Shown here one piece after another: positions 4,169 through 58,574 of a DNA stretch of 64,000 nucleotides (position 1 is its first letter; every line of letters begins with the position of its first letter). Location: contig CAZQGQ010000001.1 of the NCBI GenBank assembly GCA_964593365.1, positions 178,384 to 242,383 on the forward strand, read 5' to 3'. Source of the stretch: an uncultured Candidatus Saccharibacteria bacterium (lineage in GTDB: Bacteria > Patescibacteriota > Minisyncoccia > Phycocordibacterales > Phycocordibacteraceae). Made by a program: the position numbers and the translations under genes. Below the pieces are notes generated by a model. It ran no database searches, was not told the origin of the DNA, and saw nothing but the letters and a program-made list of their open reading frames with translations.

Positions 4169-4242
4169 GCGGTCGTAGCTCAACTGGTTAGAGCACCCGC
4201 CTGTCACGCGGGAGGTTGCGAGTTCAAGTCTCGTCGACCGCG
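4169..4242 (+). tRNA. tRNA-Asp (GUC)
   Basis: Acceptor gcggtcg/cgaccgc, anticodon stem-loop cccgc-cuGUCac-gcggg, T-arm cgagttcaagtctcg. Confidence 0.85.
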
Positions 4243-4246
4243 CAAA

Positions 4247-4290
4247 GCACAAAGCCACCCGAAAGGGTGGCTTTGTGCGTGTATACTTTT
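4247..4290 (+). terminator. perfect 14-bp hairpin (GCACAAAGCCACCC-gaaa-GGGTGGCTTTGTGC) plus U-tract; copy 1 of a ~45 nt direct repeat
   Basis: Inverted repeat read directly; a near-identical copy lies at 5071-5119. Confidence 0.6.
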
Positions 4291-4332
4291 CACATGCCTC
4301 CAGAAACTGTCTTCGCGCCTCGAAGCTCTGTA

Positions 4333-4986
4333 ATGATGCGAATCAGTATCTTCGTAGCACTGCTACTCACTTTTTTTGTTGGATGTATTGGAACCTACTT
4401 TATCCTCACTTCGCGCACCACGGAGGAGGTATCTATACCAACAAATACTGAAGATGGGCGTGTGTGGGTTACGTATTCGTCCATAGTAACTGCAACAACG
4501 ACCACACATGTCTCGGCAAATGGAGAGCCATACTCAATAGCACATTCTGCAGGCTTTAGTATTGCAGTGCCTGTAAGGGAGGCCTACGAAGCTGCCCTTG
4601 AAAGCTATCCCTTTCAAACCTCAATTGAAGTTCAGGATTCAGCGGTAACTTTCAGGGCTCCTGTAGGAACTACAGATTCCGAGTACAACACCTTTATTGC
4701 CCTATATCTTGAGAGAAATGATACGAGCGACTATACAACTCAGGAAAGTTGCGTTATGTGTCAATCCTATGTGAAGGAAGTAAATACTCAGGGAGTTACG
4801 TACTATCGTTATGGCGAGTATCGACGTGGCTTGAATGCACAATATCAGTTTCCAAACATAGATGATGCGGCCACGACGCTTCAGATAACGATTAATTCGC
4901 ATAAGGACTATACCGACGAAGAGATACTAAGAATTTTAAATAGCGTCAAGAAGATAACAGAGACTCAATCTCTTACTCACGACTAG
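4333..4986 (+). CDS. hypothetical N-anchored/secreted protein encoded in a low-GC cassette
   Basis: The ORF annotated from 4216 overlaps tRNA-Asp, so the start is moved to ATG 4333 (MMRISIFVALLL signal/TM). Composition is visibly AT-richer than the flanks. Confidence 0.5.
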   Translation: MMRISIFVALLLTFFVGCIGTYFILTSRTTEEVSIPTNTEDGRVWVTYSSIVTATTTTHVSANGEPYSIAHSAGFSIAVPVREAYEAALESYPFQTSIEVQDSAVTFRAPVGTTDSEYNTFIALYLERNDTSDYTTQESCVMCQSYVKEVNTQGVTYYRYGEYRRGLNAQYQFPNIDDAATTLQITINSHKDYTDEEILRILNSVKKITETQSLTHD

Positions 4987-5070
4987 TAAATTTCACAATT
5001 AGAGACTCTAGAGATAAGTGTCTCCGTGCTTTACAGCTCTAAATCTTAATTCCAACAACGTCCACTAGCT

Positions 5071-5119
5071 CGCGCAAAGTACAAGGCCATCTGAAAGGGT
5101 GGCTTTGTGCGTTATATAC
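5071..5119 (+). repeat. copy 2 of the ~45 nt direct repeat, with an imperfect hairpin (GGGTGGCTTTGTGC 3' arm conserved)
   Basis: 'cgcgcaaagtacaaggccatctgaaagggtggctttgtgcgttatatac' vs 4241-4283 'cgcaaagcacaaagccacccgaaagggtggctttgtgcgtgtatac'. Confidence 0.6.
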
Positions 5120-5127
5120 TCTCAAGC

Positions 5128-5631
5128 ATGACCACCAACCGTCGAAGCCTCTTTTTTGCTTTGGTTCTTATTGCCGTTGTCGTGCTCGGTATCTGGTATC
5201 TTACGAGCGTAAAGAGCGGAGAAGTGCCTGAAGAGACGTGGACGCATGAATATATTCCCTACCCTCACCCTCAATTCGTTCCGCAGTGGCCAAACGAGTT
5301 CCATAATGGTCTCGTCATATCGCCTCAGTCAGCATCAAGCGTAAAGGCGGACCAAGCGTATCTGGAGAGTCCCGGTTTTATTGTCGTGCATCGCGTAGTT
5401 CGGGATTCTCCTGAAGAAGTGTTAGGCGTAAGTTCGTATCTTGCTAATGGCCTTCATAAGGACGTGCCGCTTAATGCTTCTCTTGAGGCAAACTCAATCT
5501 ATTTCGCTTTTCTCTACGCGGATGACGGAGACAGGGTCTTTGACATTACCAAAGACGCAAGACTTAAGTTCTACGACGCGCCGAACAAGACATACCCTGA
5601 AAACCGGGTCGCTCAGTTTGAGACCCTATAA
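5128..5631 (+). CDS. hypothetical N-anchored protein
   Basis: Start moved to ATG 5128 (MTTNRRSLFFALVLIAVVVL TM helix); no known domain. Confidence 0.45.
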   Translation: MTTNRRSLFFALVLIAVVVLGIWYLTSVKSGEVPEETWTHEYIPYPHPQFVPQWPNEFHNGLVISPQSASSVKADQAYLESPGFIVVHRVVRDSPEEVLGVSSYLANGLHKDVPLNASLEANSIYFAFLYADDGDRVFDITKDARLKFYDAPNKTYPENRVAQFETL

Positions 5632-8096: not shown

Positions 8097-8462
8097 CTAC
8101 TGGCCGCTACCTTCTTTGCGGATAGCATCGAACTCGCGTTCAAACGTATCGATGACCTCGTCGCTGCCGTCCTCGATATCGATGAGCTGGTTTCGCGCTG
8201 AGTCGATAGCCTTGATGAGCTCGTCGAGCTTGAGGTGCACGGCATGCGCATCGCGGTTCTGGGTGTTCTGAATGAGGAACACCATGAGGAAGGTAAGGAT
8301 TGTCGTACCTGTGTTCACCATGAGCTGCCAGGTGGTAGAGAAATGGAACACGGGTCCCAAGACTGCCCAGAGCACAATGAGTGAAAAGGCGACGACAAAC
8401 GCCCACGGGGATCCGGTAACGCCGCTCGTCCAGTGAGCTACTCTTCGAAATAGGTCATGCAT
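8097..8462 (-). CDS. small membrane protein of the low-affinity iron permease (Fet4-like) / DUF1003-type family
   Basis: 'TGTTILTFLMVFLIQNTQNRDAHAVHLKLDELI' resembles the conserved core of these small bacterial permease-like proteins. Confidence 0.45.
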   Translation of the reverse strand: MHDLFRRVAHWTSGVTGSPWAFVVAFSLIVLWAVLGPVFHFSTTWQLMVNTGTTILTFLMVFLIQNTQNRDAHAVHLKLDELIKAIDSARNQLIDIEDGSDEVIDTFEREFDAIRKEGSGQ

Positions 8463-8567
8463 ATGCCCACATCATACCAGCTTCATAAGAGAGAGGGCCT
8501 GTTATCCGACCGAGCAAAAGATTGAAATAACCCCGTAAATTGGTTAGGATTCCCAAGTTCGCATCTA

Positions 8568-8642
8568 GCCGATGTAGCTCAGGGGTAGAGCAACTCCATG
8601 GTAAGGAGTAGGTCGGCGGTTCAATTCCGCCCATCGGCTCCA
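8568..8642 (+). tRNA. tRNA-Thr (GGU), CCA encoded
   Basis: Acceptor gccgatg/catcggc, anticodon stem-loop actcc-auGGUaa-ggagt, T-arm ggcggttcaattccgcc, 3' CCA. Confidence 0.8.
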
Positions 8643-8666
8643 GGACATGGTCACCCGTGTCTGTGC

Positions 8667-8742
8667 GCCATCGTAGCTCAGTTGGTAGAGCATCTCACTC
8701 GTAACGAGAAGGTCGCCGGTTCAATCCCGGCCGATGGCTCCA
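8667..8742 (+). tRNA. tRNA-Thr (CGU), CCA encoded
   Basis: Acceptor gccatcg/cgatggc, anticodon loop cuCGUaa, T-arm gccggttcaatcccggc, 3' CCA. Confidence 0.75.
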
Positions 8743-8745
8743 AAC

Positions 8746-9522
8746 TCACTTCGATCCTTTTTGTCTCCAGAGAAAGTCGAAATATCGTTGGTAATTCTTT
8801 GCGATCTCGGAGTTGATTATCTCAACGACAAAATACGACCCGATATACGAGCGAATAGCGATGCGATCATCCATAATCGCCGTGCAACTCGTGTCGCTTG
8901 TGATAAGTGGATTCTGTTTGAACTCAGTTAAGCCCTTCGTTGTCTTGGCGTACGTTCGGTCTTTAGCCATAACGTCAGGAACGATATGCTTCAAATGGAG
9001 TTTCTTTTGCTTTTGCAGATCTGCGAGTTCTTCAACTACCCCGGGACCCATAATGTCGTACCACTGCGGGGACACACCAAGAAAGCGAAGGGTGCTACCG
9101 ACTTTCGCATTTCCGTACGTTCTGCGCTCGTGTTGTCGTATCTCATCTATTCCTTCGTACACGACAATCCCTTGGGCACTGCCTTTTGAAAGGGAAGAGA
9201 GTTCTCTGATAGCGTCTTTTGCGACGGCCTCCTTCTCATGGATCGCACTTAAGAGCTGAATGGGTGGGAGCGCTCGGTATACGGCAACCCCTTTTATTTG
9301 GGATACGGATATAAGCTTCTTATCAACAAGTTCCGAAAGAGCCGTGTATACAAGATTTCGGTGAAGTCCCGTGCTTTTGATAAGTTCTCCCGCTTTAGCC
9401 TCGCCTTCGCGCGAGAGTTTCAGATACACCGTTGACTGGTTGGGAGTAAGCCCGACCTTTTGCAAGTTCTGATATAAGGCTGTCATCAGGTATATGATAG
9501 CGTTCGCATAAACCAGTGTCAA
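8746..9522 (-). CDS. TrmB-family transcriptional regulator (N-terminal wHTH)
   Basis: N-terminal 'LTPNQSTVYLKLSREGEAKAGELIKSTGLHRNLVYTALSELVDKKLI' HTH typical of the TrmB family; gene lies in a lower-GC segment. Confidence 0.55.
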   Translation of the reverse strand: MTLVYANAIIYLMTALYQNLQKVGLTPNQSTVYLKLSREGEAKAGELIKSTGLHRNLVYTALSELVDKKLISVSQIKGVAVYRALPPIQLLSAIHEKEAVAKDAIRELSSLSKGSAQGIVVYEGIDEIRQHERRTYGNAKVGSTLRFLGVSPQWYDIMGPGVVEELADLQKQKKLHLKHIVPDVMAKDRTYAKTTKGLTEFKQNPLITSDTSCTAIMDDRIAIRSYIGSYFVVEIINSEIAKNYQRYFDFLWRQKGSK

Positions 9523-9592
9523 TATGACAAAGCTGTCATAAGGGGAGGTGTCATCATAAATATGTTGACTTTACTGGATTTTCTATGATATT

Positions 9593-10015
9593 TTGCCCTC
9601 GCTACATATGACACATTCAACACCGACATCGACAGGCGACCCGTTCGGTTACTTACTTACCCTTGACCTATACGGGTGCCAAGAAGGCGCCTGTGATGAT
9701 CTTGATCTCTGTTATCGCTTCCTTGTTGATCTTGTAGAGAAGCTTGGCATGCATAAACAGTCACCGCCTTTCATATTCAGAAGCGACGAACAGAAGTATC
9801 CAGATAAAGCAGGTCTCTCCGGATGGGTTCCGCTCATAGAAAGCGGTATTCAGATACACACACTTATCCCGAAAAACTTCATATCAGTCGACGTTTACTC
9901 ATGTAGGGAGTTCTCGACAGATGAAATCGCCGAATTTGCCAAAGGATACTTCGCCTGCGAGGAGGTCGAGATGAACTTTGTCCTTCGAGGTTTGAAATAT
10001 AACCAAATAACCTAA
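9593..10015 (+). CDS. speH: S-adenosylmethionine decarboxylase proenzyme, small bacterial/archaeal class (pyruvoyl-dependent)
   Basis: Aligns by eye to B. subtilis SpeD: 'LYGC', processing-site 'ESG' and 'IQIHTLIPKNFISVDVYSCRE' (cf. [24 protein letters not shown]). Confidence 0.65.
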   Translation: MPSLHMTHSTPTSTGDPFGYLLTLDLYGCQEGACDDLDLCYRFLVDLVEKLGMHKQSPPFIFRSDEQKYPDKAGLSGWVPLIESGIQIHTLIPKNFISVDVYSCREFSTDEIAEFAKGYFACEEVEMNFVLRGLKYNQIT

Positions 10016-10020
10016 ATCTC

Positions 10021-10836
10021 ATGACTCGCCCTGAAATGCCGTCTTCTGTAGAAACAGATCTTTCTGCGATTGAGAGCAAGGACTTCGGTACCTATTGGTA
10101 CTTGGTCCAGAAGTTCTATCACGAGAAGTTCTTCAACTCAGACTATCTGGGAAGCCTTATTGCGTATCTCGATAAACTACAGCCAGCTAGGGTCCTTGAT
10201 GCTTCCTGTGGCATTGGGTATCCAGCTATTGAACTGGCTCAGCATGGTTTCAATATCACCTGCAGTGACGGCGACGAATCGCTTCTCCGGGTATTTGAAA
10301 AGCGATTGAGAGAGAGCGATGTTGCGATACCCATCCATCACGCTCGTTGGGCAGAGCTCCCAGAAAAAATAGATGGAACGTTTCCGATTGTCCTGTGTCT
10401 TGATAGTTCGATAACGTATGCAAACTCATGGGGAAGTGAAGGAGAAATAAATCTGCCTCAGACTCGGGAAGAGATACGTAAATCCCTTCAGGGTTTCTAC
10501 GACATGCTCGAACCTGGGGGCAAAGCCGTAATAGGCCTTGGTGAGTACGCCTTTACCGATGATCGGGTAGAGGGAAAGATCGTCGATCTAGGCACCCAAG
10601 CGATAGGAGGCCAGACCGTTCAGCTTGTCTGGAAGCTTGAGTTTGACTATGAACAGAAGAAGAAAACCTGGCACTCAGTCTTCACTACTAACGGTAGAGA
10701 ATATACGCGGACATTCTATAGCTACATGCTCATGGCAGACGAGCTTGAGGAGCTATTACGAGAGGTTGGATTCACCGCTATAGAAACTGAGCCAACTCCG
10801 GGCGGGTACGACAGAAACGTTATCGCAACAAAATAG
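10021..10836 (+). CDS. class I SAM-dependent methyltransferase, glycine/sarcosine N-methyltransferase-like
   Basis: 'RVLDASCGIGYPAIELAQHGFNITCSDGDESLLRVFEKR' parallels GNMT '[40 protein letters not shown]'; downstream 'LCLDSS..GGKAVIG' also parallels GNMT. Confidence 0.6.
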   Translation: MTRPEMPSSVETDLSAIESKDFGTYWYLVQKFYHEKFFNSDYLGSLIAYLDKLQPARVLDASCGIGYPAIELAQHGFNITCSDGDESLLRVFEKRLRESDVAIPIHHARWAELPEKIDGTFPIVLCLDSSITYANSWGSEGEINLPQTREEIRKSLQGFYDMLEPGGKAVIGLGEYAFTDDRVEGKIVDLGTQAIGGQTVQLVWKLEFDYEQKKKTWHSVFTTNGREYTRTFYSYMLMADELEELLREVGFTAIETEPTPGGYDRNVIATK

Positions 10837-10840
10837 ACAT

Positions 10841-10866
10841 CGGTTCAATCCCGTCGATGGCTCCCG
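10841..10866 (+). repeat. direct repeat of the 3' end (T-arm plus acceptor) of tRNA-Thr(CGU); putative attR-like duplication
   Basis: 'cggttcaatcccgtcgatggctccc' vs tRNA 3' end 'cggttcaatcccggccgatggctcca' (8716-8742); 24/26 identity. Confidence 0.6.
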
Positions 10867-10896
10867 AGAGTTAGCAACATACGTTAATATAGGGGA

Positions 10897-11268
10897 ATGG
10901 CAGGCAATAACGGACGTAATGGACCTCCCCCTCCACCAAAACCCCTAGAAGATTGGGAGCGAATCGATAGGATACGGCGCATTCTTGAAGATCTCGAGCA
11001 GGAGGATCAGCACCAAGAGCAGAGTATTGCGTCGCAGGAAGAGCAGGTTGCAATCGATGAGAGCGAGACAAAGCGCCTTTATGATTCATGGGCAGGCGTG
11101 CCGGAGGGGAAAGAAAAGTTTAAGAAGAGCATGGAAGAGCATATTGCCGCCAAGCGGAAAGAGATCGCGCGCCGTCGCGAGGTGCTTAAGGAAAGCAAAG
11201 AAGGGATAAAGAAGTTGAAGGAGGAGCTTGAGCAAATCGCTCGAAACCTTGATGTAACCAAGCACTAG
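10897..11268 (+). CDS. hypothetical coiled-coil protein with N-terminal poly-Pro tract
   Basis: 123-aa charged helical ORF ending 5 nt before prfB, in the -1 frame relative to it. Confidence 0.4.
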
Positions 11269-11279
11269 GATTGTTTTCT

Positions 11280-12158
11280 ATGGCCGACGAAACAGTTAAT
11301 CCCCGCATTCTTGAGATTGAAGTGATGATGATGGAGCCCGATTTCTGGGCGGACAAAGACGCTGCGCAGAAAATCGTGCGCGAGTACCAGGCGTTGAAAG
11401 ACGGAGGCACGGGAGACCCGCTTCAAGACGGGGACGCGACGCTTGCAGTTCTTGCGGGAGCTGGCGGAGACGACGCGGAAGATTTTGCCGCGATGCTAAA
11501 ACGCATGTACGAAGGGTACGCGAAGATAAAAGGATGGGGCGTACGCTTACTAGATGAGAACGAGAACTCGCAGGGCGGATATCGAAGCGTTCTGCTTGAG
11601 ATCAAAGGTTCTGGCGTATACGGCCGTCTGAAGCATGAGGCGGGCGTGCATCGCCTTGTCCGCATCTCTCCTTTTAATGCAAACGATAAGCGTCAGACGT
11701 CCTTTGCGATGGTCGAGGTGCATCCGACGGAAGCTCCTAAAGATAAGATCGAGCTTAAGGCCGATGACCTCGACATCCAGTTCGCGCGCTCAGGAGGGGC
11801 AGGCGGACAGAACGTAAACAAACGAGAGACCGCAGTACGCATCGTGCACACCCCGACGGGGATAAGCGCTCACGTCTCAAGCGAGCGGAGCCAACTGGCT
11901 AACCGAGAGAAGGCCATGGAGCTCGTGAAGGCAAAGCTCTACAAGCTTCAGGAGGAAGAGCGTGAAGCGGAGACCGCAGGACGCACGCTTTCTAAGACGA
12001 CGGCGAACGAATGGGGCAGCCAGCGCCGTTCCTACGTCCTCCACCCCTATAAGATGGTGAAAGACCACGCCTCAGGGCACGAATCGGGGAATCCGGATGC
12101 GGTATTAGCTGGTGAGCTTGATGATTTTATAGACGCAGCTTCCGCGGGTGGGGTATAA
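11280..12158 (+). CDS. prfB: peptide chain release factor 2 (short form, no canonical +1 frameshift site)
   Basis: GGQ motif '[11 protein letters not shown]' and the RF2-specific 'SPF' tripeptide. ATG 11280 has AGGA 9 nt upstream (an alternative TTG start is at 11271). An in-frame TGA at 11250 blocks upstream extension. Confidence 0.8.
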
Positions 12159-17575: not shown

Positions 17576-17646
17576 TGCGAGATCGTCTAATGGTAGGACA
17601 ACGGACTCTGAATCCGTTTATCTAGGTTCGAATCCTAGTCTCGCAG
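17576..17646 (+). tRNA. tRNA-Gln (CUG)
   Basis: Acceptor tgcgaga/tctcgca, anticodon stem-loop acgga-cuCUGaa-tccgt, T-arm ctaggttcgaatcctag. Confidence 0.7.
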
Positions 17647-17658
17647 CAGTCATGAATA

Positions 17659-17726
17659 CCCTGTCTGGTGACCTAGACAGGTAACAGTCCGAAACGACCC
17701 GTCTAATGACCTAGACGGGTCGTTTC
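17659..17726 (+). repeat. two tandem hairpins sharing the loop core GACCTAGAC (7-bp stem and 15-bp perfect stem) between tRNA-Gln and the island
   Basis: cCTGTCTggtGACCTAGACAGg and GAAACGACCCGTCTAatGACCTAGACGGGTCGTTTC. Confidence 0.55.
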
Positions 17727-17851
17727 GTTCTATCTACACAAACTACGAAGATAGGTGCTCTTAACGCTATGGGTCAATAGAGATCCATTTATATGGGATC
17801 TTTATTGTGATAGAATTACTGGAAGGTTATATTCAGTAGCCTAACAATTTT

Positions 17852-19390
17852 ATGAGTAAAAAAGACAACAAGAAGACACTCAAAGTCCCTGCACTTAGGG
17901 TGAATCAGTGGCTAAAGAAGTGGGACGGTATTAAGTGGGATATCGGACAACACAGAAGGAAGCCGGAGAACTGTTTCTATGTTTTTTCGCTGTCAGCAAA
18001 GCAACTCAGAGCTCTTTCAGGTGTTTATAGGCGAGATACGCAAACGCGTACTGGTCTGCAAAGAACCCATGAGCCAAAGCGATCCGAGAATATCGGTAAG
18101 TACGTTAAATATGGATACCCTTGGTCTGACTTAACAGACGATCAGAGAAAGGAAGGGCGTTTTGATCATTTACAGAAACCGGGATGGCTACCTACAGCAA
18201 TTGTGGTAAACATTCTTACAAAGGACGATTCACGCAATGGGAAAAAAGTTGCAGCTGAAGATTTGATCAAAATCATAAGTGACACACAAAAAAATACTCA
18301 AATAGAGCTTCCAAAATCATTTACAAATTCTGAAACATGGAAAGTAAAACAGGAACGCCCCATCGAGATTATTGATGGGCAACATCGCTTGTTGGCTTTT
18401 GACGATGACGAGATATCCGGTGATTACGAATTACCAGTAGTTGCATTTTATGGACTGGATATTAGTTGGCAGGCATATCTATTTTGGACGATCAACATTA
18501 AGCCAAAACGAATCAACCCAAGTTTAGCTTACGATCTTTATCCATTACTGCGTACAGAGGAATGGTTGGAGCAGTTTGAAGGGCATAAAGTTTACAGAGA
18601 AGTTAGGGCACAGGAACTTGTTGAAATGCTTTGGTCAGAAGAGAAGAGTGCATGGTATCGAAGAATTAATATGTTGGGAGAAAGTGGCGGCCCTTCAGTT
18701 ACTCAGGCTGCGTGGATTCGAGCTCTTACTAAAACTTTTATCAAATCATTTGAGGGAGGAAAGAAAAATAAAATTGGAGGATTGTTTGGTGCGCCGGTTG
18801 GAAAAGACAAAATTGCAATTCCTTGGAATCGCGCTCAGCAAGGAGCGTTGTTGATCCATTTATGGAATGAGATAAGTGAGGCCGTTGAAAATTCCAAAGA
18901 AAGATGGGTAAAGGAGCTTCGTGATAAAAAGAAACAAGAATACAAGCGAGGGATTGATGGAGATGTTGCTTTATTCGGGCCGTATTCGTTGTTGACTAAT
19001 GACCAAGGTGTCTCCGTGGTTCTAAATATTAGCAATGACCTCCTCTTTCTGGAGAAAGACAAGCTTAACCTACAGGAGTGGGAATTTGATGCCGAGGGTA
19101 GCGTTACCGAAGCGCTCAGTTCACTTACAAAAAAACAAAAAAAGTTATCAGAATACGTATCTCGTCTCGCTAAAGCGATAGCAACTTTTGACTGGAGAAC
19201 ATCTGCAGCTGTGGGCTTAACGGAAAATGAACGGACGCAGAAACTTTCTTATAGAGGTGGTAGTGGGTATAAGGAATTTCGCAGGCAACTTCTTAAGCAT
19301 CTTATCAATGATGCTCATTTTGGTGACTCTGCAAAGGAGATCTATCAAGCTCTAGGATATGCCAAGGAAGACACCAAAAAAATCAAATAA
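17852..19390 (+). CDS. DGQHR-domain protein (DndB-like, ParB/sulfiredoxin fold)
   Basis: Signature 'EIIDGQHRLLAF'; low-GC gene, first in a four-gene overlapping operon. Confidence 0.65.
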   Translation: MSKKDNKKTLKVPALRVNQWLKKWDGIKWDIGQHRRKPENCFYVFSLSAKQLRALSGVYRRDTQTRTGLQRTHEPKRSENIGKYVKYGYPWSDLTDDQRKEGRFDHLQKPGWLPTAIVVNILTKDDSRNGKKVAAEDLIKIISDTQKNTQIELPKSFTNSETWKVKQERPIEIIDGQHRLLAFDDDEISGDYELPVVAFYGLDISWQAYLFWTINIKPKRINPSLAYDLYPLLRTEEWLEQFEGHKVYREVRAQELVEMLWSEEKSAWYRRINMLGESGGPSVTQAAWIRALTKTFIKSFEGGKKNKIGGLFGAPVGKDKIAIPWNRAQQGALLIHLWNEISEAVENSKERWVKELRDKKKQEYKRGIDGDVALFGPYSLLTNDQGVSVVLNISNDLLFLEKDKLNLQEWEFDAEGSVTEALSSLTKKQKKLSEYVSRLAKAIATFDWRTSAAVGLTENERTQKLSYRGGSGYKEFRRQLLKHLINDAHFGDSAKEIYQALGYAKEDTKKIK

Positions 19391-20717
19391 CACCTTTCCT
19401 TCGAATGCATATTCAAGGGAAGCGACCCAGGCAACCTTCAATAGACTGAAGGCTTATCTTGATGATGATCGCTGGCTTGCGCGAGGGAATCGATATGCGA
19501 TCAAATGTGTTGATCGTATTCGAAAGGACTATAAGCAAGACTCTAGAACGAAAGTAATTACAAACGATATAGTCGAGAAGCATCTTGCTGAATATATAGC
19601 TGCTTCTGCGCCTGTCCACGCAATAGATGGGTGGGGTTTTTTAGGGAAAGCAATCGCAAGTCACTCAATTGGAGATATTGAGGCATGTAAGCATTTTGCT
19701 TATTATGCGCAGCTTCGAGCTGTCATGTCACTGATGGCCAGTGAAGGTATTGGAGTTTTTGATAACAAGCATTTTGCAATAAAGAATGCGGATCGGAGAA
19801 CTTCGTCTGTGACAGCCCCGAAAAAGAGTTCCACGCATGATTTTGCAGGTTCGCAGTTTAGATCATGGGCAAAATCAAAGAGTTCCGGAGCTCTGCTTGA
19901 GAAGATAATTCGACCCAGAGGTATCTCTCTTGAGGAATGGTTTAAGGAAATTTCACCAACAAAAGTTAGTTGGCTGGCTCAAGACTGGCTTGATCATTGG
20001 GGATATGACTTAAATAAATTTAAGAAAGATCAAGATGCTCGAAACAGAGCAAGTTATAGACCAACAATTCTAGACCGTGACTTAAATTATCGAAACGCTT
20101 CAGTTGTAAGTGACTCGATTGAACTTGTGGATGCGATCTGGAGAATGTGTTCACCTGATAGCGTCGGTGGTTTCAGCCTGGATTTGCAGCTAATGAGAGT
20201 TAGTTGGGATGAATATTCGCGTATGAGAGGAACGACTCCGACTCGAGCTGATAGAGAAAAGGTTTTAAGTGACTTAGGTATCTTGCAACCAGAATTAGGT
20301 AATCTAGTCGACTTTTTTGAACGTACAACTTCATCCGTAGATTCAATCATCTTAACTGAAGCACGTAAGAAAGGTTCACCCGAAGATGTCGATTATCACT
20401 CGCAAATGCTATGTCGTGCCACAATTCTGCTACGTCTTGCCACTGGGGCATCAGCTTCTCTTATAGCAAAGGCTAAGTTCGATAAGGATGATTTGAAGTT
20501 TTGGTCAGATTTTGTTGGTGAGAACTCGGGCTTGTGGGAGTCAGGTGCTCCAAACCCTATTACAGATATGTGGAACGAAGTTGAAGAAGCTTTGCATGAC
20601 CTCAACGTTAAAGCACCCTCAATTAATAATCATTATAAATGGCGTTCTGAACTCGCAAATGAAGTACTGACCTTGTCTGGGTGTGAGCGTATTGGTTTAG
20701 CCCGATTTTGCCTATGA
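19359..20717 (+). CDS. hypothetical protein, no recognisable domain (island component 2)
   Basis: 452 aa; 32-nt overlap with the upstream gene and 10-nt overlap with the downstream one. Only a weak P-loop-like 'GWGFLGKA'. Confidence 0.5.
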   Translation: MPRKTPKKSNNTFPSNAYSREATQATFNRLKAYLDDDRWLARGNRYAIKCVDRIRKDYKQDSRTKVITNDIVEKHLAEYIAASAPVHAIDGWGFLGKAIASHSIGDIEACKHFAYYAQLRAVMSLMASEGIGVFDNKHFAIKNADRRTSSVTAPKKSSTHDFAGSQFRSWAKSKSSGALLEKIIRPRGISLEEWFKEISPTKVSWLAQDWLDHWGYDLNKFKKDQDARNRASYRPTILDRDLNYRNASVVSDSIELVDAIWRMCSPDSVGGFSLDLQLMRVSWDEYSRMRGTTPTRADREKVLSDLGILQPELGNLVDFFERTTSSVDSIILTEARKKGSPEDVDYHSQMLCRATILLRLATGASASLIAKAKFDKDDLKFWSDFVGENSGLWESGAPNPITDMWNEVEEALHDLNVKAPSINNHYKWRSELANEVLTLSGCERIGLARFCL

Positions 20718-21961
20718 AATACATGGGCTCAAAACGTTATATGTTAAATAACGGTCTTGGTACTTTGATACGAGATCAGTTACCTCATGCTAACAGGGTG
20801 ATAGATCCATTTTGTGGAGCAGGATCAGTAATTCAATTTGCAGCAAAGAATTCTGATAAGGAGATAATTGCCGGCGATCTTCAGCAGTATGCAATTGTAC
20901 TCGCAAGGGCTGTTATTGAACGTACAAAGCCAGTTGATGTGCCTATGTTACAGACTAGTTGGTTACTTAAGGCGGAAGAACAACTGTCGAGATCTAAGCT
21001 TTTTCTGCAAGCAAAGAAGAACGACATTAATTATTCCCAAAATGTAGAAGAGTGGGTAAAAAAATCTCGCCAACTATGTGAGATTCCTTCAAAGATTGGA
21101 CCTGTATGGGGTGCTTACGGTGGTCATTACTTCAGTCCTAAGCAAGCGCTTATTATTGATTATCTTATTAAGTGTTTGCCTGAGAAGACCACTGACCGGA
21201 ATGTCTGTTTAGCTGCCCTGATAACTGCAGCTTCAAGATGTGCTGCAGCTCCGGGACATACAGCCCAGCCTTTTCAACCTACTGAAGGTGCTTCTAAGTT
21301 TATAAAGATCTCTTGGAACATGGATGTGCTCAAGTCTTGTTTAAATGCTTTGACTGAGATCGCACCGCTACATGCCAAAACAAATGGTGCTGCATATGTT
21401 GGAAGCGCTGAGAAGCTCACACAAAAAATGCAAAAAGGAGATCTGGTAATAATTGACCCTCCTTATTCAGGGGTACAATATAGTCGTTTTTATCATGTAT
21501 TAGAGACCATCGCGCGTGGCAAATGCGGAAAGGTAGAAGGGGTAGGGCGTTATCCTGTATTGTCAGAGCGCCCTCAGTCGTCTTTTAGTAATGTTGGTCA
21601 ATCTGTCGAAGCTCTCGATATTCTTCTAAAAAAGTTATCAGAGAGAGAAGTTGTCGTAATTTTTACTTTCCCTAAGGGCGATTGCAGTAACGGTTTATCC
21701 GGAAAGGTGATTGCAGACAGTGCAAAAAAGTATTTCACAATAGATAAAAAGAGCAGAACACACCATCATGTAGTGAAGGGTAAGTTCAGCACTTTAGGTG
21801 GAAATAATAAACTTAAACTAAAAAACAACGAGGTTAAAAGATCTCGAGTGACCTCTGAGGAGCTTATCCTCCTTCTTAAGCCGAGAGTATCAAAGTCAGT
21901 ATCACGTAGCAAACAAAAACAAAAGATAAAAACACGTAAGAGCTATGCACAATATCGGTAA
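20708..21961 (+). CDS. D12-class (Dam-like) N6-adenine DNA methyltransferase with a Lys-rich C-terminal tail
   Basis: 'YMGSKRYML' (cf. KWAGGKR), 'DPFCGAGSV' (FxGxG) and catalytic 'IIDPPYSG' (DPPY). Confidence 0.7.
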   Translation: MPMKYMGSKRYMLNNGLGTLIRDQLPHANRVIDPFCGAGSVIQFAAKNSDKEIIAGDLQQYAIVLARAVIERTKPVDVPMLQTSWLLKAEEQLSRSKLFLQAKKNDINYSQNVEEWVKKSRQLCEIPSKIGPVWGAYGGHYFSPKQALIIDYLIKCLPEKTTDRNVCLAALITAASRCAAAPGHTAQPFQPTEGASKFIKISWNMDVLKSCLNALTEIAPLHAKTNGAAYVGSAEKLTQKMQKGDLVIIDPPYSGVQYSRFYHVLETIARGKCGKVEGVGRYPVLSERPQSSFSNVGQSVEALDILLKKLSEREVVVIFTFPKGDCSNGLSGKVIADSAKKYFTIDKKSRTHHHVVKGKFSTLGGNNKLKLKNNEVKRSRVTSEELILLLKPRVSKSVSRSKQKQKIKTRKSYAQYR

Positions 21962-22823
21962 AAAGATAACTATATATCTCGTTACAGGACTTCCAAAAGG
22001 AGTTCGAGAGGCCCGTATCGATCAGTGGAGTGGTAAAGCAGTTTGCGGTCCTCGAAACGCATTAAAAGAGATAATCGCTTTGCCTGAAGTTGAGTCGGGC
22101 GCATGTATATATTTTCTTATAGGCATTCCAGATGACGGAGGGTTGCTTGATGTATATGTTGGAGAAGCAGATGGGTTTAAAGAAAGAATTAAACACCATG
22201 ACTACAAGAAAGAGTGGTGGCAAGACGTTGTAGTATTTGTCAGTCAAGATAAATCACTTACAAAAACGGGAATTCAGTATCTTGAGAGTGTTTGTATCGA
22301 GCGTCTAAAGCAGATTGGCAAATGTAATCTTAAGAATGGTAATAGTCCCTCTCTACCTACAACGCCTAAGGAAGACTTAAGTGGTCTCGAACTGTTTTAT
22401 ATGAATCTTGCAACAATTATGCCCTTGCTTGGTTATGATATCTTTGTTCAAAACGAAAAATCACCTGGTAAGAATACGGTAGAGAGTCCAGTTTTTACGT
22501 GCAAGAAAGGAGTGAATATTGTTGCGGAAGCATATTTACTCGAAGATGGAAAAATGCGTGTTTTAAAAGGGTCAAAAGCGTCAGCAGAAGAAACACCTTC
22601 TTTTCAAAGCCATCCATATAAAAAACTAAAAAATGAGTTAATAAAAATCAATCGCTTGGTACCTCAAGGTGACATTCTTATCTTTTCTGATGATTACGTT
22701 TTTGACAGCTCAAGCGCTGCATCAGCCGTTATACAAGCTCGATCTTCACCGGGACCTATAGAATGGAAACTGAAAAAGGGAGGTAAAACTTTGAGAGAGT
22801 ATCTAAACTCAAAGATTCAATGA
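21945..22823 (+). CDS. GIY-YIG nuclease domain protein with a C-terminal DUF4357-like domain
   Basis: 'ACIYFLIGIPDDGGLLDVYVGEADGFKERIKHH' fits GIY-(10-11 aa)-YIG plus the Arg/Glu pattern; 17-nt overlap with the methyltransferase. Confidence 0.55.
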   Translation: MHNIGKKITIYLVTGLPKGVREARIDQWSGKAVCGPRNALKEIIALPEVESGACIYFLIGIPDDGGLLDVYVGEADGFKERIKHHDYKKEWWQDVVVFVSQDKSLTKTGIQYLESVCIERLKQIGKCNLKNGNSPSLPTTPKEDLSGLELFYMNLATIMPLLGYDIFVQNEKSPGKNTVESPVFTCKKGVNIVAEAYLLEDGKMRVLKGSKASAEETPSFQSHPYKKLKNELIKINRLVPQGDILIFSDDYVFDSSSAASAVIQARSSPGPIEWKLKKGGKTLREYLNSKIQ

Positions 22824-22956
22824 GAGTTATAACTGCAGAAGCCATATTTTAATCTTCTCAGGTATTGAGACACGTCGCTTTAAACACTTCATACAACAGT
22901 ATAAGTTATTGATCTCACGCAATTTTCACGACCCTTTTTGTATCCTTCATAGCGTG

Positions 22957-47598: not shown

Positions 47599-48699
47599 TC
47601 ATTCAGCTACTTCTGTCGGTGGAGCAGGAACTCTCGCTATTGCTTCCTCAAGAGCGTTATTAATCTGTTCAAGGATAGTCACAGCAGAACCAGAGCTTCC
47701 TATCGCATCCTCGCCTCGTATGGCAAAGGTCGATTTAGCCACCTTGAAATGAGTGAGTCTGAATTTGCGCAGGAATAGAAGACACTTTCGTAAAGATTGT
47801 GCCGATGCATTCTCTCCACCATGTCCATGCTGTAGCAGCTTTGATAGCGCAGAAGGCTTACCTAAAAGCTGTGCTGCAAACTCTCTGTATACGCGGGGGC
47901 CATTAGCAGCGCTGTGGGTAATATGCGAGTTGTACCACTCCTGGTTGGAATCTGAGCTCCAGAGAAGTAGGTCAACGAGATATATAGGGACTTGCGCACC
48001 TCCAGGGCCAAAGTATTCCTTACCTTCGAACTTGATAGGATCTGAATAGGGTCGGATGCTGTTCATGAATACGTCAGGCGGAATATTGCGCGCCTCTCGC
48101 ATGCCCTCGACCATTCCTCCAAGTCCGGTAACGATTTTCTCGCAAAGAGAGACGTACTCTGCCGAGTTCTCAGGCGTGCGGCTGAGCTGTTCAGCACTCT
48201 CGATCGCTAGGAATAACGAATCCATACCTATCTGGAAACCACGAAGAAGCGCACGTTCATGCTCGCTACTTGAGAAGGTACGCAGGCGCTCACCAGGCGG
48301 ATTTCTAAAGATGTAGGTATATACGGAATCACGCGGTGATTCTCCAGTTAGTTCTATGAGCCGGCGAGCTGTATCCCGTATTTCCGGATGGGCTTCAATA
48401 TCGACACCGCGTACGCCAAGAGCAGTTGTTAGGAAGCAGAAATCGCGATGCACAGCGAAGAGCTGTTCTCGGGTATGAGGACTCGCGAGGAATGCGTCAG
48501 TGCGCTTAGAAAGGGATATCGCTTCTTGCAGGAGCTCCTCCATATTTCTTGACTCATTGAGCTCCCGGAAGCGGGTTTTGAAAAACTCGTCTGCCTCAAG
48601 CGGGTCATATTCTCGAACACGCTCATCAAAATTCACCCATTCGTTGATTTGCTCAACGTTGTTTTTGGGTTTATTGGAGCCTGCTTCAGGATCAATCAT
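47599..48699 (-). CDS. hypothetical protein (366 aa)
   Basis: Low-GC; no confident family match (faint resemblance to PrnB/IDO-like helical proteins). Confidence 0.4.
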   Translation of the reverse strand: MIDPEAGSNKPKNNVEQINEWVNFDERVREYDPLEADEFFKTRFRELNESRNMEELLQEAISLSKRTDAFLASPHTREQLFAVHRDFCFLTTALGVRGVDIEAHPEIRDTARRLIELTGESPRDSVYTYIFRNPPGERLRTFSSSEHERALLRGFQIGMDSLFLAIESAEQLSRTPENSAEYVSLCEKIVTGLGGMVEGMREARNIPPDVFMNSIRPYSDPIKFEGKEYFGPGGAQVPIYLVDLLLWSSDSNQEWYNSHITHSAANGPRVYREFAAQLLGKPSALSKLLQHGHGGENASAQSLRKCLLFLRKFRLTHFKVAKSTFAIRGEDAIGSSGSAVTILEQINNALEEAIARVPAPPTEVAE

Positions 48700-56639: not shown

Positions 56640-58574
56640 TTATACTCCGATCAAGACCGGGATAACCATCGGTGCCTTGTTGGTTCGAGAGAACAGATAG
56701 CCTGCCATGGTGTCGGTAAGCTGGTTCTTCACGAAATCAAGGTCAACCGGGTTCATTCCCTCAGTCGAGTCCTCGACTGTCTTCTTGATGAGAAGGCGGG
56801 CTTGGTTCAGAAGATCCTGAGACTCTCGCAGATAGATGAATCCGCGGGAGATGATATCAGGGGACTTCCGCAGTTTGCCGGTCTTTAGGTGCACGGTCGC
56901 GATGATGACGAACATGCCGTCCTTGGCGAGCATCTGGCGGTCGCGGATCACGACCTCCTGCATGTCGCCGATGGCGAATCCGTCGACAATCAACGGAGCG
57001 TTTGGCACCTTATCCTTGTGGATCATGAGGCGCTCGCCGTCCACGATGTCGATCACCATGCCGTTATCGGCAAGGACGATGTTCTCGCGAGGGAAGCCTG
57101 CCTGCTCGACTGCCTTTGCGTGTGAGCTTGTCATAGAGTAGTAGCCGTACGCTGGCATGAAGAACTTCGCGTTCACCTGCTTGTTGATCCAGACCAACTC
57201 TCCGGTTTGTCCGTGTCCTGTGGAGTGCACGTCAGAGGAGCGGTAATGGATCAGGGTGACCTTGTTGCGGAAGAGGTTATCCTTCAAGCGCTGCACGGCG
57301 ATCTCGTTTCCAGGAATAACCGATGACGAGAGCACGATAGTATCTCGCTCGTTAAGCGTGATGCTCTTGTGCTGCTTGGTTGCGATGCGCATAAGCGCTG
57401 CGAATTCCTCACCCTGCGCGCCTGTTGCCAAGACGACGATCTTGTCTGGCGGATAATCGCCTATCTCGGTCGCGGGGACAACGGTTCCCTTGGCGATCTT
57501 GAGGAGGCCGGTCTTCTCTGCGATCTCAAGGTTCGTCTTGATCGAACGGCCTTCCATAACCACCTTCTTCCCGAGTCGCTCGGCGATCTGGATGATATGG
57601 ATCATGCGCTCGAACTGGGACGCGAAGGTGCCGATAATGAGGCGTCCTTTCACCGTCTTCACGATCTCCTCCAAGGTCTCATGGACCTTTCGTTCGGGGA
57701 TCGAGAAGCCGTCCTTCTCGGCGTTTGTTGAGTCTGCAATAAAGAACAGGTTGTTGTCCTTTCCGATCTCGCCCCACTTCTTGGCTTCTGCTTCAGTGGC
57801 GACGCCATCGACATGGTCGAGCTTCAAGTCTCCTGTCGCAACGACGTTGCCGTAGGGCGTCTCGATCGAGATACCCATCGAGTCAGGGATAGAGTGCGTG
57901 ACTGGGAAGAACTTCACTCGTGTTCCTCCAATGGTGTGCGTTGACCCAGGCTCAACCACCACGAGGTTTGGAGCGGGCATCTCAGGATATTCTTCCTGAC
58001 GCTTCTGGATCATCACGGCAGAAAGGTTCTGCGTGTAGATAGGGGGGTTCCCGAATCGGTTCATGAGGAACGGGATGCCGCCGATGTGGTCGAGGTGGCC
58101 GTGGGTAATGAAGACCGCGCGTACGCGTTCTTGGTTCTTCTCAAGGTAACTGGTGTTAGGGAGCATGTAGTCGACGCCTGGAGCCGTGTCTTCGGAGACG
58201 AACTGGAAGCCCACGTCGCAGACGAAGATATCGTTGCCGCTTTCAACGGCAAACATGTTGCGTCCCACTTCCTCGACGCCGCCAAGAGGCACGATGCGAA
58301 CGACGTTTGGTGCGACTGGGTCAGGGAAGTAATCAGCTACTTTTCGGACTGTTGGGGCCGAGGGGGATCGGCGCATGCCGCCGCGGCGCATGTCGCGCTG
58401 CTTTCCTCCGGATCGTCCGCCTGCTGCGCGAGGTCCTCCGGTTCGAGGTCCGCGAGACGGGCCCTGGGGCCCTGCTCCGCGATTGCCGCGGAAGGGAGGG
58501 CGTCCACCTGCCTGATCGCCGCCTTGGCGGGAATCTGGAGCGGGTGCTGGGGCCGGTGCTGGTGCAAAGTTCAT
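56640..58574 (-). CDS. rnj: ribonuclease J (metallo-beta-lactamase/beta-CASP) with ~90-aa N-terminal RG-rich extension
   Basis: 'FITHGHLDHIGG' HxHxDH motif, beta-CASP and C-terminal domains; N-terminus 'PAPAPAPAP..RGNRGAGPQG'. Confidence 0.85.
   Translation of the reverse strand: MNFAPAPAPAPAPDSRQGGDQAGGRPPFRGNRGAGPQGPSRGPRTGGPRAAGGRSGGKQRDMRRGGMRRSPSAPTVRKVADYFPDPVAPNVVRIVPLGGVEEVGRNMFAVESGNDIFVCDVGFQFVSEDTAPGVDYMLPNTSYLEKNQERVRAVFITHGHLDHIGGIPFLMNRFGNPPIYTQNLSAVMIQKRQEEYPEMPAPNLVVVEPGSTHTIGGTRVKFFPVTHSIPDSMGISIETPYGNVVATGDLKLDHVDGVATEAEAKKWGEIGKDNNLFFIADSTNAEKDGFSIPERKVHETLEEIVKTVKGRLIIGTFASQFERMIHIIQIAERLGKKVVMEGRSIKTNLEIAEKTGLLKIAKGTVVPATEIGDYPPDKIVVLATGAQGEEFAALMRIATKQHKSITLNERDTIVLSSSVIPGNEIAVQRLKDNLFRNKVTLIHYRSSDVHSTGHGQTGELVWINKQVNAKFFMPAYGYYSMTSSHAKAVEQAGFPRENIVLADNGMVIDIVDGERLMIHKDKVPNAPLIVDGFAIGDMQEVVIRDRQMLAKDGMFVIIATVHLKTGKLRKSPDIISRGFIYLRESQDLLNQARLLIKKTVEDSTEGMNPVDLDFVKNQLTDTMAGYLFSRTNKAPMVIPVLIGV

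Follow-up and report, generated by a model that had tools for sequence, protein, structure and literature searches.

A three-gene islet bounded by att-like repeats at tRNA-Thr(CGU) in a Paceibacteria chromosome and its decarboxylase-methyltransferase cargo

The part of a tRNA gene between the T-loop and the 3' end is a well-known sublocation for the core of tRNA-targeting integrases, and a sublocation scheme for tyrosine integrases in tRNA genes was reportedly drawn up by Williams in 2002. Elements related to these insertions are the P4-type tRNA islands and the cis-mobilisable elements (CIMEs), which were described in Streptococcus as segments flanked by attachment (att) sites and devoid of recombination genes of their own. 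In the present work, a stretch of 64 kb (contig CAZQGQ010000001.1, positions 178,384 to 242,383; referred to as the window, in whose coordinates all positions are given) was analysed with respect to the segment at 8743-10840 that follows tRNA-Thr(CGU). The segment encodes a regulator, a pyruvoyl-type decarboxylase and an S-adenosylmethionine (SAM)-dependent methyltransferase. We read it as a small islet that lies at a tRNA gene, is bounded by att-like repeats and has decayed, which makes it an already known kind of feature.

As in P4-type tRNA islands, the islet lies right after an intact tRNA gene, its distal repeat covers the tRNA from the T-loop to the 3' end, its base composition deviates and relatives lack the block at this site. 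In contrast to P4-type islands, it carries no integrase, excisionase or mobility gene, comprises three genes in 2.1 kb and ends in a mutated distal repeat.

In the case of the decarboxylase, the closest described enzymes are the S-adenosylmethionine decarboxylases (AdoMetDCs) of class 1b, SpeH/SpeD, together with their neofunctionalised derivatives SpeDA, an arginine decarboxylase, and SpeDC, an ornithine decarboxylase (PMC10407285, PMC9992855). All true AdoMetDCs are reported to keep the Pro of the WPE motif, whereas the arginine-decarboxylase derivatives have lost it and the ornithine-decarboxylase derivatives carry four diagnostic residues (Li et al., PMC10407285).

Duplicated tRNA 3' end and the DNA between the repeats

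The coordinates of the determined features are presented in Table 1. The string cggttcaatcccgtcgatggctccc was found at the right end of the islet. The 3' part of tRNA-Thr(CGU) reads CGGTTCAATCCCG-GC-CGATGGCTCC-A and the distal copy CGGTTCAATCCCG-T-CGATGGCTCC-C, resulting in 13 and 10 identical bases on the two sides of a GC to T change in the T-stem (one substitution and one deletion), and the terminal CCA of the tRNA is CCC in the copy. The pattern GGTTCAATCCCG N{0,4} CGATGGCTCC matched twice in the window and in none of 100 dinucleotide-preserving shuffles. The distal copy was more similar to tRNA-Thr(CGU) than to the adjoining tRNA-Thr(GGU), and the acceptor strand CGATGGC was specific to the tRNA-Thr(CGU) of this lineage, different acceptor stems being found in other relatives. 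The similarity to the tRNA was about 92% across the 25-nt core and fell abruptly 5' of it. This sharp edge suggests an att core between unrelated arms, unlike the uniform decay of a duplicated gene. Nothing tRNA-like was detected at the distal copy by the Rfam covariance-model search, even at E<=1, and in the region 8400-11400 the same search for riboswitches or other RNA elements returned only the two tRNAs.

The GC content of 8743-10840 was 0.467, compared with 0.526 for the whole window. The three islet genes had GC values of 0.456-0.480 and GC values at third codon positions (GC3) of 0.485-0.518 (0.475 and 0.518 for the regulator), whereas those of the 30 other genes of the window were 0.550+-0.022 and 0.641+-0.055, respectively; the islet genes were thus lower by 3-4 standard deviations (SD) in GC and by 2-3 SD in GC3. 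The block starts 4 nt past the tRNA end at 8742, with the stop codon of the regulator at 8746, and the stop codon of the methyltransferase (10834-10836) precedes the distal copy by 4 nt. Since only 4 nt are spare on each side, the repeats bracket exactly the compositionally deviant DNA. The three genes fill the islet with almost no spare DNA, which leaves no non-coding room for an integrase remnant.

Through the neighbouring release factor 2 (RF2) protein, 80 loci of species-representative genomes were retrieved. The best RF2 matches, with identities of 69-73%, came from metagenome-assembled genomes of Paceibacteria/Parcubacteria, some of them labelled Kaiserbacteria. The order tRNA-Thr(GGU), tRNA-Thr(CGU), prfB, ftsE, ftsX, pyrG and then tRNA-Gln(CUG) was widely conserved, and tRNA-Thr(CGU) in the same orientation was the nearest tRNA upstream of prfB in 56 of 81 loci. 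The gap between them was at most 150 nt in 26 of these 56 loci, 151-600 nt in 10, 601-1500 nt in 14 and above 1500 nt in 6; in the window it is 2.5 kb. No homologues of the regulator, the decarboxylase or the methyltransferase were found at the site in the RF2-fetched loci. A further locus, L096, was found by a metagenome scan with the lineage's own tRNA sequence. Its tRNA-Thr pair is 90% identical to that of the window and shares its acceptor stem, while only about 58 nt separate the tRNA from the start of prfB, so that L096 is effectively an empty site.

Extra tRNA fragments without cargo were observed at the same position in two relatives. At L020:4860-5020, a perfect 47-nt copy of tRNA-Thr(CGU), from the anticodon loop to CCA, lies 37 nt downstream of the tRNA. 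At L017:7404-7640, a tandem array of about 83-nt units was found, each unit ending in a 3' fragment of tRNA-Thr(CGU), which gives two extra fragments. These duplications show that the 3' end of tRNA-Thr(CGU) was hit repeatedly in relatives.

The lower-GC three-gene segment of 2.1 kb after tRNA-Thr(CGU), described in an earlier note on this DNA, was thus confirmed. The 25-nt tRNA copy reported there is present and not due to chance, but it is not exact and ends at 10865 instead of 10866. The statement that the AT-richer segment ends at the repeat holds for the genes, the last stop codon lying just before the copy, but not for a sharp compositional edge, as the next gene has a GC content of 0.513. 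The attL/attR-like insertion at tRNA-Thr(CGU), seen by the earlier note as a degraded islet without integrase, is supported by the tRNA-prfB junctions of relatives, which lack the genes; the same three genes at the site, which the note had named as contrary evidence, were found in none of the related loci.

Table 1. Coordinates of the features in and around the islet and in other acquired-looking regions of the window.
Feature	Position	Strand	Evidence	Remark
tRNA-Thr(GGU)	8568-8642	+	ARAGORN; Rfam 69.1 bits	upstream member of the pair, outside the islet
tRNA-Thr(CGU)	8667-8742	+	ARAGORN; Rfam 67.7 bits; repeat search	putative integration target
attL-like repeat copy	8717-8742			3' 25-26 nt of tRNA-Thr(CGU): T-arm, acceptor 3' strand, discriminator, CCA
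Regulator, 246 aa	8746-9486	-	PF01978 2.6e-11	TrmB-family winged-helix domain, residues ~8-75; uncharacterised C-terminal domain
Divergent control region	9487-9607	.	promoter scan	putative function
Pyruvoyl-type decarboxylase proenzyme, 135 aa	9608-10015	+	PF02675 2.6e-16	AdoMetDC (class 1b) fold
Class I SAM-dependent methyltransferase, 271 aa	10021-10836	+	PF13649 2.8e-9	GSMT/GNMT-like fold
attR-like remnant	10841-10865	+		right end of the islet; degenerate repeat of T-arm and acceptor 3' strand of tRNA-Thr(CGU)
Orphan coiled-coil, Pro-rich gene, 123 aa	10897-11268			between the tRNA fragment and prfB; lineage-specific
Orphan open reading frame after tRNA-Asp	4333-4986			GC3 0.40
DUF7282 gene				in the stretch after tRNA-Asp
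DndB/DpdB-like gene	17852-19390			defence-type, after tRNA-Gln(CUG)
Unknown protein, 452 aa				after tRNA-Gln(CUG)
D12 adenine DNA methylase	20708-21961			defence-type, after tRNA-Gln(CUG)
PDC-S14/DUF4357 candidate defence protein	21945-22823			defence-type, after tRNA-Gln(CUG)

Origin of the islet

The proposed origin of 8743-10840 is the horizontal acquisition of a 2.1-kb islet by a Paceibacteria chromosome of the Candidate Phyla Radiation (CPR). Site-specific recombination would have placed the DNA in the 3' part of tRNA-Thr(CGU), between the T-loop and the acceptor end. The incoming DNA would have restored the tRNA at the left junction, and the displaced original 3' end would have been left at the right junction, where it later decayed. 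The recombinase would since have been deleted, or was perhaps never carried, as in att-flanked elements mobilised in trans; with the recombinase gone, the islet is expected to be immobile today. The homologues of the three genes sit in different places and never together, and this mosaic character was counted in favour of such an origin. We consider an integrase-mediated origin followed by the loss of the recombinase moderately probable.

Several observations weigh against this origin. The right-hand repeat is imperfect and therefore its past function as an att site cannot be shown. The islet has no integrase, its three genes matching only the TrmB, AdoMet_dc and methyltransferase families; no recombinase family was found among the Pfam-annotated genes of window positions 1-20.8 kb, and no integrase among the 10 longest open reading frames (ORFs) in the inserts of seven relatives. 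The exact methyltransferase was found on 18 public contigs, the longest a JGI contig of 659 kb, all of which show the same occupied arrangement, and there is therefore no sign of a presence/absence polymorphism. Moreover, the related loci are distant (PrfB identity at most 73%), which makes ordinary rearrangement at a plastic junction a live alternative.

Such rearrangement could mean that the tRNA-Thr(CGU)/prfB junction is permissive and accretes genes from foreign CPR DNA through illegitimate or homologous recombination, the tRNA fragment being an older, separate scar. The junction gap, which varies from about 0 to 6 kb across relatives, would fit such accretion, and so would the heterogeneous and mostly housekeeping-like cargo of the scanned inserts (methyltransferases, a penicillin-binding protein, a diaminopimelate epimerase, a sensor kinase) together with the lack of integrases among them. 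The nearest relatives also differ among the three islet genes, and one more lineage-specific orphan (10897-11268) has settled between the fragment and prfB. However, the exact bracketing of the deviant DNA by the repeats is not accounted for by accretion, and the similar GC content of the three genes fits a single arrival. Accretion is accordingly judged unlikely. A native, vertically inherited region, with a low GC due to constraints on the single genes and a repeat that arose by coincidence, would draw on the decarboxylase family being widespread and conserved in Patescibacteria, so that this type of gene is not foreign to the phylum. The lack of the repeat pattern in the shuffles, the absence of the three genes at the site in related loci and the depressed GC3 make this explanation extremely improbable.

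A tandem duplication of tRNA-Thr(CGU) followed by the decay of the second copy and the insertion of genes between the two would require no site-specific recombination, and tandem duplication of tRNA 3' segments is seen in L017. In the register of the 3' repeat, 24 of 50 positions at 10791-10840 match the 5' part of tRNA-Thr(CGU), a level that is reached by a fraction of 7e-4 of the 50-mers of the window. However, 10791-10836 encodes the methyltransferase C-terminus, a part that its relatives conserve (Y..N..A.K), and the match is for this reason not read as a decayed full-length tRNA; it may be due to chance or to residual similarity of an att arm. Had a whole copy decayed, 92% identity over the last 25 nt beside 48% elsewhere would not be expected, and the Rfam search found nothing tRNA-like there. 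A duplication of this kind is quite improbable.

Regions elsewhere in the window resemble the islet in position and composition. A low-GC block of about 5 kb and GC 0.40 (17576-22900; GC 0.39-0.43, GC3 0.29-0.37) with defence-type genes follows directly after tRNA-Gln(CUG) at 17576-17647. Neither a copy of the tRNA 3' end at its far side nor an integrase was observed; the block shows the same pattern as the islet and was counted in favour of an origin by integration. A low-GC stretch at 4244-5400 (GC 0.43-0.47) lies directly after tRNA-Asp (4169-4243), and no copy of the tRNA-Asp 3' end was found in the window. The PrnB-like gene at 47599-48699 on the minus strand (PF08933, 5.4e-13), with GC 0.496 and GC3 0.46, low for the genome, may be another acquired gene. 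The 104-nt 'tRNA-Phe' predicted by ARAGORN at 58179-58282 (minus strand) had no Rfam support and is probably a false positive because it lies inside an ORF of 644 aa (56640-58574).

On the prfB side of the islet, the 123-aa coiled-coil gene was rejected as a conserved native gene: in BLASTP against the ORFs at the same position, no alignment was obtained with L014 and 17 residues aligned with L021 (E 0.05). In the prfB region (10897-12158), RF2 is only about 292 aa long in the window as well as in relatives. The RF2 of E. coli has about 365 aa.

Decarboxylase, methyltransferase and regulator

The decarboxylase reached 45.6 bits on the AdoMetDC equivalog TIGR03330, which is under the cut-off of 75.65, and no solved structure was found in the PDB at E<=0.01 (phmmer, single sequence). 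In total, 949 homologues were detected at E<=1e-3. The best 120 of the 949 were 67-79% identical, and the members among them with taxon labels belonged to Patescibacteria. An alignment of 30 members had a mean column identity of 75%, and its profile matched the AdoMetDCs of Aquifex aeolicus and Thermotoga maritima with E values of 5e-6 to 7e-4. The central region GLSGWVPLIESGIQIHTLTPKNFISIDVYSC aligned with both enzymes without gaps, which indicates conservation of the residues for processing and catalysis. E78-S79, H84 and C99 were invariant in the 30 homologues and aligned with the corresponding residues of the T. maritima and A. aeolicus AdoMetDCs; the cleavage is thus predicted between Glu78 and Ser79, with Ser79 as the putative pyruvoyl residue and with His84 and Cys99 conserved.

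The residues that distinguish the substrates of this family were compared as well. The HTWPE motif of AdoMetDCs aligned with HTLTP of the decarboxylase, which places a Thr in the column of the Pro. For SpeDC, the SpeD2 domains printed in the PMC10407285 supplement were aligned with the decarboxylase by eye, taking the pyruvoyl Ser as the anchor, the mapping of the residues being inferred: none of the four SpeDC residues Q, T, F and Y (VQLIETSLVSGHF..AYIDIFSC) was present in the decarboxylase, which reads V, E, T and S (WVPLIESGIQIHT..ISIDVYSC). Judged by these residues, the decarboxylase is a competent-looking pyruvoyl proenzyme with the signature of neither a true AdoMetDC nor an ornithine decarboxylase. 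In view of the score under the cut-off and the missing Pro, the label SpeH is too confident.

In other CPR genomes, a PurD-like ATP-grasp gene and a histidine kinase were often found near the decarboxylase, and in the contexts examined its homologues never adjoined this methyltransferase or regulator. At L010:5634-6393 (Patescibacteria), two tandem AdoMet_dc-family genes (113 and 130 aa) are followed by a gene for an SfLAP-family membrane protein, an arrangement that echoes the paired SpeD1/SpeD2 of neofunctionalised AdoMetDC homologues. Relatives of the decarboxylase with 47-68% identity were found on 185 viral contigs of IMG/VR. Two of the contigs were checked and are real phages, one having a T4-type DNA polymerase and clamp loader and the other a terminase and portal. 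DNA modification genes were the commonest neighbours in the phage loci (L108-L187; for example L117:6022-8338, L121:1963-3647 and L137:4418-6384): of 80 loci, 29 have a DNA N6/N4 methylase (PF01555) no more than two genes downstream, 22 a DNA-modification protein of the Mom family and 12 a DUF1599 ('nucleotide modification associated') protein. These neighbours point towards DNA modification or the use of SAM and away from a supply of polyamines. GenBank phage records gave only three matches, of 30-32% identity, and they provided no link to the phage ornithine and arginine decarboxylases validated by experiment.

The methyltransferase starts 5 nt after the stop codon of the decarboxylase, and from this spacing the two genes are probably co-transcribed. 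A word-indexed search of 5.8 billion proteins returned the methyltransferase itself and one match of 27%, whereas the exhaustive search of 1.84 billion representatives yielded a family of a few hundred, the best full-length member being 41% identical. D60, G66 and D83 of the SAM-binding motifs were invariant in 45 family members and G64 nearly invariant. The AlphaFold (AF2) model had a pLDDT of 93.8, and its top Foldseek matches in the PDB were 5HIJ, 5GWX and 5HII (E about 1e-16 to 1e-15). The best of them was 5HIJ (E 4e-16), the glycine/sarcosine N-methyltransferase (GSMT) of Methanohalophilus; TM values of 0.64-0.71 were obtained with GSMT and glycine N-methyltransferase (GNMT). Further fold matches were rat, mouse and human GNMT, the amine N-methyltransferases CypM, CcbJ and NmbA, and some C-methyltransferases. 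GSMT/GNMT were also the best sequence matches in the PDB (E about 3e-7), with an identity of about 20%.

In rat GNMT, Arg175 binds the carboxylate of glycine. In the HMMER alignment (...VIDHRNY(177) vs ...viglgey) this residue pairs with Gly174 of the methyltransferase, and on the GSMT equivalog NF051855 the protein scored 49 bits, far from the cut-off of 350. The methyltransferase resembles GSMT/GNMT in fold only and is nearly an orphan.

Two members of the methyltransferase family stand in informative contexts. P0126, 32% identical, starts 3 nt after an unrelated pyridoxal phosphate-dependent amino-acid decarboxylase of the diaminobutyrate/aspartate type, and P0124 unites a GSMT-like domain and a member of this family in one fused protein. 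No Pfam match to a decarboxylase domain was found in the N-terminal extensions of the fused members P0131, P0163, P0170 and P0174. A link between regulator and methyltransferase through P0125, in which a winged helix-turn-helix (wHTH)-like N-terminus is fused to the methyltransferase family, was rejected, as BLASTP against the window regulator gave E 0.5 and all the Pfam wHTH matches were sub-threshold. An AzeJ-type SAM cyclase and an MmtN-type Met S-methyltransferase were likewise rejected as identities of the methyltransferase, being absent from its PDB sequence matches and top 50 fold matches, provided that the searched PDB contains their structures.

Relatives of the methyltransferase were also observed next to tRNA genes. 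At L188:893-1840, 2 nt separate tRNA-Arg(UCG) from the start of a relative that is split into two ORFs, and a convergent tRNA-Gly(GCC) follows 16 nt past its end; at L094:745-1758 a relative starts 145 nt after tRNA-Lys(CUU). The GC content of both contigs is about 0.34, and no tRNA repeats were found around the two genes on these short contigs.

The PF01978 match of the regulator spans the full length of the domain; in the Pfam scan it was located at residues 20-87 of a longer ORF of 258 aa. The regulator scored 28.5 bits on TrmBL1 (cut-off 650) and 16.2 bits on TrmB (cut-off 600) of NCBIfam, in both cases over the first ~100 residues only. It shares with the sugar-sensing TrmB regulators the N-terminal winged helix, but not the sugar-binding domain. 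Its homologues, with identities of 40-60%, occur in Patescibacteria in unrelated contexts. The control region contains a near-consensus promoter-like TTGACA-17-TATCAT on the minus strand (9522->9494) for the regulator and a weaker TTGACT-16/18 on the plus strand (9565-9594) for the operon. Four to five half-sites TGTCAT/ATGACA are also present, and the palindrome ATGACAAAGCTGTCAT among them is a candidate operator; nowhere else in the window are the hexamers so dense, with 5 in 141 nt compared with a mean of 0.06.

The gene names proposed by the earlier note were accordingly retained in part. Divergent transcription of the regulator was confirmed, and 'TrmB' is correct for its N-terminal wHTH but not for the rest of the protein, which is unlike TrmB. 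'SpeH', a pyruvoyl AdoMet decarboxylase, describes the fold and the proenzyme, but the equivalog score and the replaced Pro do not agree with the name. 'GNMT-like' holds for the fold of the methyltransferase and fails at the equivalog cut-off and at the glycine-binding Arg. The small polyamine or osmolyte module suggested in the note is one possible reading.

Possible role of the cargo and comparison with described systems

The three genes look like one regulated unit whose parts are each common in CPR bacteria and were found together only here. The TrmB-type regulator, divergent from the decarboxylase-methyltransferase operon across the TGTCAT-rich region, would make the unit self-contained. 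In the proposed route, the decarboxylase would convert an amino acid into a primary amine, which would then be N-methylated by the methyltransferase, resulting in a methylated amine or a betaine-like small molecule rather than spermidine. This two-step reading is based on the amine N-methyltransferases among the fold neighbours, the decarboxylase pair of P0126, the GSMT fusion of P0124 and the missing equivalent of Arg175. By analogy, the P0126 pairing would favour amine N-methylation over classical spermidine synthesis. The latter was not supported; a tblastn search of the 64-kb window with one E. coli SpeE sequence detected nothing SpeE-like.

The action of the two enzymes in sequence, amine formation and then N-methylation, is put forward tentatively, being somewhat doubtful in view of several findings that speak against it. 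The pairing of this decarboxylase with this methyltransferase is unique to the genome, and the analogue that supports it, P0126, is one case. The two closest relatives of the methyltransferase (47% and 40% identity; L188 and L094) have no adjoining decarboxylase, and the usual neighbour of the decarboxylase in other CPR genomes is an EamA/DMT transporter (four of five distinct contexts). The fuller proposal, an undescribed two-step CPR route with a substrate that is neither SAM nor SpeDC-type ornithine, a methylated polyamine or betaine-like solute as the product and a TrmB-type repressor acting on the TGTCAT repeats, is rather unlikely as a whole.

The decarboxylase could instead still use SAM or an analogue (S-adenosylhomocysteine, S-methylmethionine), sharing a cofactor pool with the methyltransferase and feeding it no amine. 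The AdoMetDC fold, the ES cleavage site and the conserved His and Cys are consistent with this, as are the phage neighbours of its 47-68% identical relatives, with SAM-dependent DNA methylases at their head. The EamA/DMT transporter found beside the CPR homologues also agrees with a SAM-linked role. SAM importers of Rickettsia and Chlamydia belong to the EamA/DMT superfamily. However, the equivalog score falls short of the AdoMetDC cut-off, the Pro of HTWPE, completely conserved in true AdoMetDCs (PMC10407285), is replaced, and a spermidine synthase was not found in the window with the SpeE query. Retention of SAM or an analogue as the substrate is therefore considered unlikely.

If acquired as proposed, the islet would be a routine gene gain at a tRNA gene, showing that CPR genomes of about 0.7 Mb acquire small accessory modules at tRNA 3' ends, and that insertions have recurred at the tRNA-Thr(CGU)/prfB junction across Paceibacteria. 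Of more use as a lead is the cargo, which points to a very conserved clade of AdoMetDC-fold decarboxylases (about 75% identical in Patescibacteria and present on at least 185 viral contigs) and to a near-orphan GSMT-like family. If both enzymes cooperate, they would constitute a new small-molecule pathway in organisms usually regarded as nearly devoid of biosynthetic capacity; otherwise, the locus is just an accessory-gene mosaic. Should the two-step reading be true, the same decarboxylase clade beside phage DNA methylases and Mom would have a role other than polyamine supply.

Compared with CIMEs, the islet is similarly bounded by att-like repeats, has no recombinase and consists of cargo only. 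It differs from them in the mutated attR core, and no cognate integrase-bearing element was seen in the 10 insert ORFs of relatives that were scanned. Mobilisation of the islet in trans is pure conjecture. The methyltransferase differs from GSMT/GNMT in the low identity, the missed equivalog and the Gly in place of Arg175, and from GSMT in its partner gene, which is a decarboxylase and not the second methyltransferase of a betaine pathway. It is like GSMT/GNMT in the fold with a substrate cap, in the SAM-binding motifs and in the GSMT-fused family member P0124.

The decarboxylase is set apart from SpeH/SpeD by its score under the TIGR03330 cut-off and the lack of the AdoMetDC-specific Pro, and from SpeDC by the lack of all four SpeDC-type residues. 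Its gene is not beside speE, hss, speY or CASDH/CASDC. With the class 1b AdoMetDCs (SpeH/SpeD) it shares the PF02675 fold, the length of about 130 aa and the equivalents of Ser63, His68 and Cys83 of T. maritima at the same spacing. The spread among CPR bacteria and phages is common to SpeH/SpeD, SpeDA, SpeDC and the window decarboxylase.

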